Of a stretch of 64,000 nucleotides of DNA, positions 22,975 through 23,724 are shown one piece after another. Each line of letters starts with the position of its first letter. Within the stretch, counting starts at the first letter, position 1. Made by a program: the position numbers and the translations under genes. The notes below the pieces were generated by a model. It ran no database searches. It was not told the origin of the DNA and worked only from the letters and a program-made list of their open reading frames with translations. Source of the DNA: a virus (lineage: Duplodnaviria; Heunggongvirae; Uroviricota; Caudoviricetes); the IMG/VR virus record IMGVR_UViG_3300001765_000035, positions 16,012-80,011 of that record; one strand, 5' to 3'.

Positions 22975-23724
22975 TTACCTATAAGCTTTTGGAAGTAATA
23001 AACGTGACCATGTTACAAGACCGCCAATGGATGAACCATTGTTTTGATGTCTTGCAGCACGTAGTTTATACTTTGTTTTTCGTGGTATTTTCATAAAGTT
23101 GTCTCCAACCATTATACCTAGTACTCGTCTAAACCCATATTTCGCATAGCGTATACGTGTTTTAGATGGTTTTATTCTAAATTCGTCTGCTTTAAATATT
23201 GCTTGAATATCTTGAATCAGTAGGTTTAGAGAAGTGTGATTGTCATCATTTAAGGATATTGTAATGTCATCTGCATAAACAGTGAAAGCGTAATCTCCTA
23301 CAACATTATCGAGATGTTCAACTACAGCAGCAAGGGTAGGTACTAATGCGATATTACATAAGATAGGTGATGTAGCAAAGCCTTGTGAACAATATCCTTC
23401 ATTGTGATATAAGTACTGATCATTCCCAAATAAAGGTGAAAATTTTTTAATATGATCAGCAGTTACGTTATCAAAGAAATCAGCTATATCCATGCTGATA
23501 GTTGTTTGAAAGCCTTTATGTTTTTCTGCTGCTGTTACACAGTTACGGTTTGTTATAAAACCATGTTGAATGTTTTCTACACTATACTCATCTGCAACAT
23601 CTTGCCATAGTAGTTCTAATGTTTGTAACTTTGAACGTTGGTAAGATAGTAATTCTGGATCGGGTGCAGTAATTCGTCTGTATCCCCCACTCTTTTTAGG
23701 GAGTTTGAATTCACGGTAGGTCAT
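22975..23724 (-). CDS. reverse transcriptase, compact (249 aa), retron-like
   Basis: RT motifs in order: PKKSGGYRRI (1), SMDIADFFDNV (A), SQGFATSP (B'), VYADDITIS (C), KPSKTRI (D), FRRVLGIMV (VTG-like). Confidence 0.8.
   Translation of the reverse strand: MTYREFKLPKKSGGYRRITAPDPELLSYQRSKLQTLELLWQDVADEYSVENIQHGFITNRNCVTAAEKHKGFQTTISMDIADFFDNVTADHIKKFSPLFGNDQYLYHNEGYCSQGFATSPILCNIALVPTLAAVVEHLDNVVGDYAFTVYADDITISLNDDNHTSLNLLIQDIQAIFKADEFRIKPSKTRIRYAKYGFRRVLGIMVGDNFMKIPRKTKYKLRAARHQNNGSSIGGLVTWSRLLLPKAYR

Follow-up and report, generated by a model that had tools for sequence, protein, structure and literature searches.

The window, by which we mean the whole 64,000-nt stretch of phage DNA that was analysed, carries on its minus strand a compact reverse transcriptase (RT) gene, preceded by three further open reading frames (ORFs A, B and C) and followed by a gap of about 670 nt in which two strong and one weak retron-like non-coding RNA (ncRNA) units are predicted. 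The features are listed from high to low coordinates.

26140 to 28128, minus strand: ORF A, 662 aa, with a predicted E1/ThiF-type adenylating domain.
25121 to 26119, minus strand: ORF B, 332 aa, with a confident structure model and no recognisable fold relative.
23746 to 25110, minus strand: ORF C, 454 aa, with a predicted JAB/JAMM-type metallopeptidase domain in its N-terminal half.
23725 to 23745, minus strand: the 21 nt separating ORF C from the RT, holding an AAGGA ribosome-binding site.
22975 to 23724, minus strand: compact retron-like RT, 249 aa, recognised by its ORF, profiles, alignment and structure matches; landmarks are AAxxH ending at H69, motif A D79, QGFATSP at 114-120, YADD at 150-153, KTR at 188-190 and VLG at 201-203.
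22735 to 22978, minus strand: ncRNA unit 1, 244 nt, from fold, inverted repeat, covariance model (CM) and junction rule; arm a1 at 22978-22948 (overlapping the RT stop codon), candidate branching G at 22947, conserved core at 22909-22866 (P2 helix, GCUG-AAU-CAGC hairpin and AC-UGUA), hairpins at 22861-22827 and 22824-22796, then G22766 and the 3' arm a2 at 22765-22735.
22456 to 22736, minus strand: ncRNA unit 2, about 281 nt, from fold, inverted repeats I1 and I3, CM and RNAalifold; arm a1 at 22736-22711, candidate branching G at 22710, core at 22651-22607 (GAUG-UUAU-CAUC and GU-UGUA), a GC-rich msd-like hairpin of 112 nt at 22603-22492, then G22480 and a2 at 22479-22456.
22327 to 22465, minus strand: ncRNA unit 3, weak or degenerate, from a CM match with arms found by eye; short a1 at 22465-22453, G at 22452, core at 22441-22398 (GAUG-UAU-CAUC and AC-UAUA), a small AT-rich hairpin at 22383-22367 and a short a2 at 22339-22327, leaving 20 nt to the helicase ATG.
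20912 to 22306, minus strand: SF1 (UvrD-like) helicase, a conserved neighbour lying downstream of the RT/ncRNA block.

The RT ORF runs from ATG to stop on the minus strand (23724 to 22975), and the plus-strand frame is rich in stops. The strings quoted in the preliminary description (MDIADFFDNVTADH, FTVYADDITIS and GFRRVLGIMVG) were all found in the translation, and Pfam RVT_1 covers residues 9-196 with E=4.9e-20, which clears its curated cut-off. That description had named non-conserved catalytic residues as a reason to abandon its reading; in an alignment of 28 family members, D79 and Y150-A151-D152-D153 are invariant, as are Q114-G115-F116, S119-P120, K188-T189-R190 and L202-G203 (28/28). 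At the level of sequence, the 249-aa ORF is confirmed as an RT with intact catalytic motifs.

The enzyme had been proposed to be of retron type, not of group II or DGR type, and the comparison with RT family profiles suggested at that time supports the proposal. The best 25 PADLOC models are all retron RTs (RT_XIII at 4e-40, RT_III-A at 2e-35), NCBIfam retron models score from 2e-28 (St85) to 9e-24 against 9e-15 for group II and 5e-4 for Drt2, and the 12 best matches among solved structures in the PDB are all retron RTs, ahead of group II RTs (Ec67 at 3e-27 and Ec86 at 3e-19, plus Kva2, Ec78 and Ec83). The profile evidence supports retron RTs as the closest relatives, well ahead of group II intron RTs, with an E-value lead of more than 10 orders of magnitude, and this reading is greatly strengthened by the retron-like ncRNA units lying downstream of the gene. 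The retron signature motifs are present as variants, but their exact forms are absent, AAxxH replacing NAxxH and (I/V)LG replacing VTG. In retrons, region X carries NAxxH and region Y carries VTG, with H and G the most conserved residues (Mestre et al. 2020, PMC7736814); in the 28-member family, A66 is nearly invariant and H69 invariant, region Y retains the invariant L202 and G203, and N and T are replaced.

Membership of retron type XIII was rejected: this type supplies the best single PADLOC RT model, but its defining partner proteins are absent. The RT_XIII match falls in two stretches, and the assignment is unspecific because the III-A, II-A, VI, XI and XII models follow within 17 orders of magnitude of E-value. 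Type XIII is vertically inherited in bacteria and combines winged-helix/SWIM (WH-SWIM, cluster 114) and ARM/HEAT proteins (PMC7736814), whereas the neighbours of the phage RT are E1-fold, unknown-fold and JAMM proteins. A group II intron was likewise rejected (TIGR04416 scores 54.7 against a cut-off of 300, and the maturase domain is absent), and Rfam searches of the locus at gathering and permissive thresholds returned no intron RNA and no other known RNA family, only spurious miRNA-hairpin matches on the opposite strand. A DGR was rejected because no TR/VR pair exists anywhere in the 64 kb; within this span, no direct repeats above about 80% identity involve the locus, and nothing elsewhere in the window matches the gap behind the RT over more than 16 nt.

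All curated NCBIfam retron cut-offs were missed (St85, 99.3 vs 235; Ec67, 84.6 vs 450; TIR, 84.1 vs 600), so the RT falls in no curated family and forms a separate lineage, and it fits no defined retron type. These two features, together with its very short length, favour the alternative that it belongs to another class (a group II remnant, a DGR or an Abi/UG/DRT enzyme) and that its likeness to retrons is superficial. We regard this as extremely improbable, since the group II and Drt2 models give much weaker scores, maturase and endonuclease domains, intron RNA or another Rfam family and a TR/VR pair are all missing, and the next-nearest relatives are again retron-like, some of them carrying a fused PRTase, which is an effector domain of type III retrons. 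The RT itself carries no fused domain.

The missing N-terminal extension, pointed out from the sequence at the start, is borne out by HMM alignments that begin at RT residue 2-3, equivalent to retron RT model position 24-70. The RT founds a phage-restricted family of compact RTs, about 240-290 aa long, that do without the N-terminal extension of retron RTs; this family of about 140 members is nearly absent from the genomes of 185,579 species. Its relatives in IMG/VR were recovered by an alignment-based scan; when IMG/VR was scanned for close relatives using the RT sequence alone, there was no match, and megablast against cultured phages gave none either.

The gap downstream of the RT, taken as 668 nt, folds as a whole with z=-7.97. 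Its units share a plan consisting of a 13-31-bp closing inverted repeat ending "...AUA/G ... G/UAU..." (slashes at the junctions), a conserved helix-plus-hairpin-UGUA element, and variable GC-rich hairpins. By analogy, the closing repeat with these ends is laid out like a retron a1/a2 stem and its branching G, resembling the junction of Ec86. Unit 1 combines a fold z of -5.75, a 31-nt inverted repeat that is 87% complementary and a CM match of 43.5 bits. For unit 2, the fold z is -9.32 and the CM match 27.8 bits, and RNAalifold on four orthologues recovered the closing stem and the hairpin with compensatory changes. Unit 3 matches the CM at 33.6 bits with a fold z of -0.68, thermodynamically not distinctive as a whole, and equivalent third copies occur in two related loci (L003 and L005). 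A scan of the locus for sigma-70 promoters and intrinsic terminators found fewer promoter-like sites than in shuffled sequences and was uninformative.

Arrays of one to five units adjoin the RT, on the RT strand only, in every related locus with enough adjacent sequence. The hairpin motif is found one to three times in a locus when sought by pattern and, in L016, up to about five times by eye, and the units are 120-316 nt long. In nearly all loci they lie 3' of the RT stop; L017 has one upstream and two downstream. The covariance model R1 gave 24 matches in 355 kb, all about 0.1-2.3 kb from an RT gene, and further matches adjoin RTs displaced from the A-B-C triad in L044 and L148; it missed divergent copies, visible by eye, in L014, L021, L022 and L025/26. 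The RT-less relatives L042, L043, L146, L147 and L150-L152 gave no R1 match above chance-level score. Searching IMG/VR with the bare 17-nt hairpin pattern returned 99 matches, none with an RT, which are chance matches to a short pattern. These 99 loci, pre-selected for carrying the hairpin, were reused as a harsh negative control, in which most R1 scores were 14-26 bits and two reached 31-32 bits, a partial overlap with the true scores.

Covariation was seen in two inner hairpin pairs (AU/UA/GC/CG and UA/CG/UG). In helix P2, native partners have a mean of -9.9 kcal/mol against -4.7 kcal/mol for cross-pairings, and none of 10,000 permutations reached the native mean. Closing stems, 16-34 bp long, score at least 36 in 17 of 22 units compared with 0 of 150 random controls, and the junction ATA/G...G/TAT occurs in 14 of the 22 against 1 of the 150. 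The core is followed by long GC-rich hairpins that are not alignable, and both the number of units and the msd-like sequences vary quickly. Taken as predicted, the unit structure fits a conserved msr stem-loop and a variable msd hairpin closed by a1/a2.

Hairpins of this kind might also act as DNA. In N4-like phages, DNA hairpins with 3-nt loops serve as virion-RNAP promoters; the present stems are palindromic in DNA too, 'TATA/G' is similar to a T7-type transcription start, and a strand test of G.U against A.C changes was not significant (16 vs 9, p=0.23), the strand having been assigned from the asymmetry of the UGUA tail and from an orientation that stays constant with respect to the RT. 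Even so, we consider it very improbable that the hairpins and inverted repeats are N4-type promoters, an origin or mobile palindromes unrelated to the RT. They are confined to loci with the RT, whose orientation they always share, and are missing from the RT-less N4-like relatives; unlike in promoters, the arm sequences differ wholly from one unit to the next, with complementarity and the G junction retained. The short hairpin is moreover nested inside a covarying helix, and the array is located in the middle-gene region, not at a genome end.

The genome that hosts the RT is that of a lytic N4-like phage of virulent type. The phage replication block recognised in the preliminary description is indeed present, with the SF1 helicase, a 767-aa protein syntenic with the N4 gp43-like primase, a 3'-5' exonuclease and PolA around the RT. 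The RT/ncRNA block always lies among these replication genes, and the third RNA copy sits in the helicase leader, which would suit a housekeeping role in DNA replication, the module providing RNA-templated primers or end-protecting structures for helicase, primase and PolA. Such a role appears improbable in view of what relatives lack: the nearest cultured phages (N4-like Alteromonas AD45, PolA 51% identical) have neither the RT nor protein A, and several metagenomic relatives are without the RT although these replication genes or the triad are retained. The unit number also ranges from one to five, and the position of the RT and its array in the block is not fixed, being before the helicase, after it, or next to PolA or RtcB. 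The RT/ncRNA module is considered accessory because the closest cultured N4-like phages do without it.

As originally reported, the RT starts (23724) 21 nt from the stop of the 454-aa ORF (23746), and the 454-, 332- and 662-aa ORFs are co-oriented with it, all on the minus strand; the RT ATG is preceded, at a distance of 7 nt, by the AAGGA Shine-Dalgarno sequence. Of the proposed tie between the RT and these three ORFs, co-transcription stays plausible, but the link is weak, as the triad occurs elsewhere without the RT. Profile searches with A, B and C (PDB, Pfam, NCBIfam, PHROGs and PADLOC) gave nothing significant, and the folds were assigned by structure prediction. ORF A has a variable N-terminus and a conserved C-terminal region of about 350 aa with a GYGGT nucleotide loop and an EP..EISNLLR motif. 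In ORF B, the invariant residues include N125, H128, C278 and S300, and H295 is nearly invariant; in ORF C, the JAMM residues (E51 ... H143-x-H145-x7-S153-xx-D156) are all invariant. Wherever the triad was found, it was intact.

If the locus were a complete tripartite retron, the E1-like/unknown/JAB triad would be an effector checked or directed by the RT-msDNA. We hold this unlikely, and equally doubtful the uses that such a system might have, namely superinfection exclusion against competing phages or a host-takeover device. In 5 of 8 long IMG/VR contigs, the triad stands without an RT or ncRNA within +/-10 kb, and these five contigs were not returned by the collection-wide RT scan either; L043 likewise has the triad without the RT. 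Conversely, a distance of 3.8-6 kb separates the RT and ncRNA pair from the triad in L010, L044 and L148; in L009, L021 and L024, the 6-8 kb upstream of the RT contain no triad; and none of the PADLOC retron effector models matches A, B or C. Because it is also found without the RT, the triad is probably a separable neighbouring module and not an obligate retron effector. As a candidate E1-E2-JAB conjugation system, it shows the E1 fold and the JAMM motif, and no E2, ubiquitin-like substrate or cyclase was identified. The E1-fold/unknown-fold/JAMM triad is a separate, unexplored phage module, worth a study of its own.

The account that we find reasonably likely is that of a phage-borne minimal retron-type system, in which a compact RT is accompanied by its own tandem template RNAs immediately downstream. 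The RT and RNAs would be transcribed on the minus strand within the phage middle/replication operon, and the long AT-rich a1/a2 stem would close each folded RNA unit. The RT would recognise the msr-like element (P2 with its internal loop, the G-N-N-G/WAU/C-N-N-C hairpin and NN-UGUA). We infer that priming occurs at the 2'-OH of the conserved G right after a1 (G22947, G22710 and perhaps G22452) and that cDNA synthesis copies the GC-rich hairpin region 5' of a2, which would yield one branched RNA-DNA per unit and thus msDNA-like single-stranded DNA (ssDNA) of roughly 60-130 nt from each. The locus suggests that phages, like bacteria, make retron-style ssDNA.

The biological role is likewise one that we infer, here from genomic context: our leading guess is counter-defence or inter-phage conflict, favoured over genome replication, and abundant structured ssDNA might, for example, act as a decoy or antidote for host immune sensors. 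A conflict role is circumstantially supported by neighbours found in the window and in relatives (NAMPT and NMNAT, NADAR, Tad2-like, Apyc1-like and RtcB/RNA-ligase genes), by the fast-varying arrays and by the five-unit array of the Staphylococcus jumbo phage MarsHill. A more speculative extension, to which we give limited credence, is that retrons lacking an effector, with tandem and rapidly diversifying arrays of msr-msd units, are carried by virulent phages from two or more lineages not related to each other, the N4-like podoviruses and the AR9-like jumbo phages of Staphylococcus, and that the msDNA cocktail from such arrays would serve counter-defence as an 'anti-retron retron'. The msDNAs would then be decoys or surrogate antitoxins that silence host retron toxins during infection; other ssDNA-, SSB- or nuclease-sensing immune systems would be alternative targets.

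Retrons are today seen as bacterial abortive-infection immunity built from one RT, one ncRNA and one toxin. The phage system would extend this picture by a lineage confined to phages, in which the RT is minimal, no effector is obligate and the template RNAs are multiplexed; it would show that the msDNA-making module is also used on the viral side of the conflict, and would open msDNA function without a toxin to direct testing. With a compact and well-defined recognition element and natural template arrays, an RT of 249 aa would also suit retron-based multiplex genome editing as a chassis.

Among known systems, the E1/JAB immune modules (CBASS Cap2-Cap3 and Bil/Bub) differ from the triad, which is phage-encoded, yielded no identifiable E2, ubiquitin-like substrate or cyclase, includes a protein B without a known fold, and gave no sequence-level family match. 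Retrons on phage-derived DNA are represented by Ec73 in prophage phiR73 and by other prophage-borne retrons; these are standard bacterial-type retrons with effectors, carried by temperate or satellite elements, and protect the lysogen. The present system, in contrast, lies in a virulent-type genome, inside a replication operon.

Bacterial retrons (Retron-Eco1/Ec86 and Eco2/Ec67; classification in PMC7736814) resemble the phage system in an RT that is closest to theirs by three independent profile libraries and by structures, in a long a1/a2 stem with a G directly 3' of a1 and a G directly 5' of a2, and in a conserved msr-like stem-loop followed by a variable long msd-like hairpin. The phage RT differs in being about 45 aa shorter N-terminally and about 30 aa shorter C-terminally and in its AAxxH and (I/V)LG signature; the system resides in a lytic N4-like phage, has no obligate effector, and its msDNA is predicted from sequence. 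Whereas classical msr-msd-ret operons have one ncRNA per RT, located upstream, the phage ncRNAs are placed downstream of the RT in tandem sets of one to five. To our knowledge, no bacterial retron has several ncRNAs per RT.

The other lytic-phage case is gp206 of MarsHill (bioRxiv 10.1101/2020.12.14.422802). The two RTs are 25-29% identical, and gp206 is longer, at 501 aa with a 200-aa N-terminal domain; the MarsHill array lies upstream of the RT, has another hairpin consensus and gives no match to model R1. In both lytic phages, nevertheless, the retron-like RT lacks a linked effector and borders a non-coding region; in MarsHill, we find this region to be made up of five tandem units of about 200 nt, all of which have a conserved hairpin and the motif 'UAUAGAC'.

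A 249-amino-acid reverse transcriptase (RT) had been proposed at window positions 22975-23724, and this open reading frame is genuine: it lies on the minus strand, with stops throughout the plus-strand reading at the same coordinates, and Pfam RVT_1 covers residues 9-196 with E=4.9e-20, exceeding the curated cut-off. Every RT string quoted in the preliminary description is present, and alignment of 28 family members confirmed that the catalytic residues are conserved, with the motif A aspartate D79, Q114-G115-F116 and S119-P120 of the QGFxTSP motif, Y150-A151-D152-D153, K188-T189-R190 and L202-G203 all invariant. 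Profile alignments start at RT residue 2-3, whereas on the other side they start at position 24-70 in retron RT models and at residue 42-47 in Ec67/Ec86. The RT thus lacks the N-terminal extension, as had been claimed. The co-oriented upstream genes and the 21-nt spacer before the RT are likewise as described, and the RT start is preceded, at a distance of 7 nt, by an AAGGA ribosome-binding site.

26140-28128, minus strand: protein A, 662 aa
25121-26119, minus strand: protein B, 332 aa
23746-25110, minus strand: protein C, 454 aa
22975-23724, minus strand: RT, 249 aa

The assignment to retron-type rather than group II RTs holds in three independent libraries, namely PADLOC, NCBIfam and solved structures. 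The best 25 PADLOC models are all retron RTs, led by RT_XIII (4e-40) and RT_III-A (2e-35) and followed by II-A, VI, I-C, XI, IX, X and XII. NCBIfam retron models (St85, 2e-28; Ec67, 5e-24; retron-TIR, 9e-24) stand ahead of group II (9e-15) and Drt2 (5e-4), while the RT family profile returns genuine retron RTs as its first 12 solved-structure matches, including Ec67 (3e-27), Ec86 (3e-19), Kva2, Ec78 and Ec83, with group II RTs behind. Retron RTs are defined by NAxxH, with H most conserved, and VTG, with G most conserved (Mestre et al. 2020, PMC7736814). In this family H69 and G203 are invariant, with AAxxH and (I/V)LG in place of NAxxH and VTG. An RT of non-retron class is very unlikely. Since the RT scores below the curated family cut-offs in every case, the retron-type family probably forms a separate lineage.

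An exhaustive search of 1.84 billion representatives identified 100 RT clusters at E<=1e-30, of which about 50 form a core of 240-290 aa. The next relatives, at 33-40% identity (e.g. P0272 and P0318), likewise start at residue 2-5 without an N-terminal extension, and some are RT-PRTase or RT-HAD-PRTase fusions. PRTase is an effector domain in type III retrons, and these fusions connect the compact RT lineage with retron-like RTs that are fused to effectors. Across the genomes of 185,579 species the family is nearly absent, with one match at 29%, and the only cultured phages matching the RT are Staphylococcus jumbo phages at 25-29% identity.

The RT stop and the start of the SF1 helicase gene are separated by 668 nt, in which no open reading frame of at least 50 aa exists on the RT strand. 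A 51-aa frame on the opposite strand inside this region (22705-22860, plus) is most likely spurious. The RNA of the gap folds far better than shuffles (z=-7.97) and comprises three units in tandem.

22978-22735, minus strand: unit 1, folds alone (z=-5.75)
22736-22456, minus strand: unit 2, folds alone (z=-9.32), includes a 112-nt hairpin
22465-22327, minus strand: unit 3, short and AT-rich, thermodynamically not distinctive (z=-0.68)

Each unit contains a conserved core in which the P2 helix surrounds both an internal loop of asymmetric form and a hairpin of 4 bp (G-N-N-G / WAU / C-N-N-C), with NN-UGUA next; at least one GC-rich hairpin follows, and an AT-rich inverted repeat of 13-31 nt closes the entire unit. 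The first post-core hairpin frequently combines a variable stem with the conserved loop UUCRCUAC(G) (unit 1 of the window; relatives L002, L005, L003, L012, L017 and L023), and unit 1 holds three ACUAGU palindromes that permit alternative pairings. The third core copy (22398-22441, minus) sits in the leader of the SF1 helicase, whose ATG is at 22306, and could couple RT binding to helicase expression. The short 3' arm of unit 3 stops 20 nt before the helicase start codon, an arrangement also found in L003 and L005.

Genomic contexts were fetched from metagenomes and IMG/VR for RT relatives at 41-77% identity. The hairpin motif occurs on the RT strand in every locus having sequence adjacent to the RT, nearly always downstream; the pattern detects 1-3 copies, and inspection by eye raises this to about five at most (L016). 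L017 has one upstream and two downstream. Elsewhere in these loci the motif is absent, bar a few unrelated sequences that match the pattern at chance level. R1, the covariance model of the core, produced 24 matches in 355 kb, each within about 0.1-2.3 kb of an RT gene, although its scores partly overlap those of chance hairpins (2 of 99 pre-selected controls at 31-32 bits). R1 also matches beside RTs displaced from their usual neighbours (L044, L148); in RT-less relatives, among them the cultured phage AD45-P1, no match exceeds a chance-level score.

The hairpin copies were initially detected with a pattern that itself requires pairing, and among them two inner pairs covary (AU/UA/GC/CG and UA/CG/UG). 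The P2 arms vary in nearly all copies yet match their own partners: native duplexes average -9.9 kcal/mol versus -4.7 for all cross-combinations, and 0 of 10,000 permutations reach the native mean. In an unconstrained best-stem search, 17 of 22 units have a closing stem scoring at least 36, against none of 150 positions drawn at random from these loci, and the junction "...ATA/G ... G/TAT..." recurs in 14 of 22 units against one of these controls. RNAalifold on four orthologous unit-2 copies recovered the hairpin as well as the closing stem and showed compensatory changes; the intervening hairpins of these copies are too divergent for alignment. A G.U versus A.C strand test was not significant, which would fit DNA-level hairpin promoters or an origin, but these are very unlikely beside the confinement of the core to the RT strand and to the vicinity of RT genes.

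Orthologues of A, B and C, together the triad, are present across the fetched loci. The JAMM signature of protein C (E51, H143-x-H145, S153, D156) is invariant, with sub-threshold Prok-JAB matches for 4 of 8 members. In the window (23746-28128, minus), A has an E1/ThiF fold, B yields a confident model with no known fold, and C is a JAMM-motif protein. No E2 or ubiquitin-like partner of the triad was identified; it may represent a phage-encoded system for conjugation/deconjugation or for peptide adenylation. A tripartite retron in which the E1/JAB triad served as the effector is unlikely. The triad is complete wherever it occurs, whether or not an RT accompanies it; five of eight triad-bearing IMG/VR contigs (51-113 kb) lack both RT and ncRNA within +/-10 kb, and these five were also not returned by the collection-wide RT scan. 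The helicase directly follows the triad in L043, the RT and its RNA lie 3.8-6 kb from it in L010, L044 and L148, and no triad occurs within 6-8 kb upstream of the RT in L009, L021 and L024. Because the triad is often RT-less or distant, it is the RT and RNA that travel as a unit; to these the triad is loosely linked, as a frequent neighbour.

Among cultured phages, the N4-like Alteromonas podoviruses AD45-P1 to P4 (~100 kb) come nearest by PolA, at 51% identity, and carry the same helicase/primase/PolA block without the RT and without protein A. The RT/ncRNA module is therefore accessory, and a replication role, which the adjoining helicase would favour, is quite improbable. Counter-defence-type genes are abundant around the RT in the window and its relatives. 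At 29474-32031 and 15805-16260 (both minus) the window encodes an NAD+ salvage set of the type phages use against NAD-depleting defences, made up of NAMPT (474 aa), a Nudix protein and a 193-aa NMNAT-like protein of cytidylyltransferase fold, together with a NADAR-domain protein that adjoins PolA. In relatives, a Tad2-like gene immediately follows the RT in L008 (8782-9069), an Apyc1-like metallo-beta-lactamase gene lies in the RT neighbourhood of L044 (741-1472), and RtcB, RNA ligase and PNK-like RNA-repair genes occur near the RT (L009, L045, L008, L044); this neighbourhood fits an accessory, counter-defence gene region. The window also encodes twelve tRNAs (56126-57058, plus; 34947-35103 and 10630-10704, minus), nine in one array.

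The best-supported reading of the system is a phage-borne minimal retron. The RT would bind the P2/hairpin/UGUA core and prime on the junction G (22947 in unit 1, 22710 in unit 2, perhaps 22452 in unit 3), and the GC-rich hairpins would be copied into msDNA-like single-stranded DNA. Its accessory status, fast-evolving variable-number arrays, counter-defence-type neighbours and restriction to phages suggest counter-defence or inter-phage conflict as the most likely role.

Full-text literature searches returned no descriptions of the present RT family, retron ncRNA arrays or the triad. In a retron ncRNA, a1 and a2 form a long stem, and the G used for priming (branching) directly follows a1 on its 3' side; the RNA also has an RT-recognised msr stem-loop and a variable msd hairpin copied from just 5' of a2 (PMC7736814). 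The phage units are laid out in exactly this way and are of similar size (120-316 nt); however, they follow the RT whereas the retron ncRNA precedes it, number 1-5 per RT, match no Rfam family, and reside in a phage genome. In Ec86 (...CCCUUA/G ... GACG/UAAGGG...) the inner end of the stem is likewise flanked by a G on either side, a parallel that serves as a lead only. Retron-like RTs of lytic phages were noted once before, in Staphylococcus jumbo phages, with an ncRNA hypothesised in the 1.2-kb gap upstream of the RT (bioRxiv 10.1101/2020.12.14.422802). In one such phage, MarsHill (L154), positions 1248-2108 upstream of the retron-like RT gp206 contain five tandem units of ~200 nt (spacing 173-213 nt), each carrying a UAUAGAC motif and a conserved hairpin, NNCAUAUGAAUACGUAUGNN, in which the outer pairs covary; UUUAUAGAC precedes the hairpin in three of the five. 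This array is analogous to that of the window but unrelated in sequence, and since the MarsHill gap is itself a five-unit array, tandem template arrays may, by analogy, be a feature that phage-borne retron-like RTs share in general.
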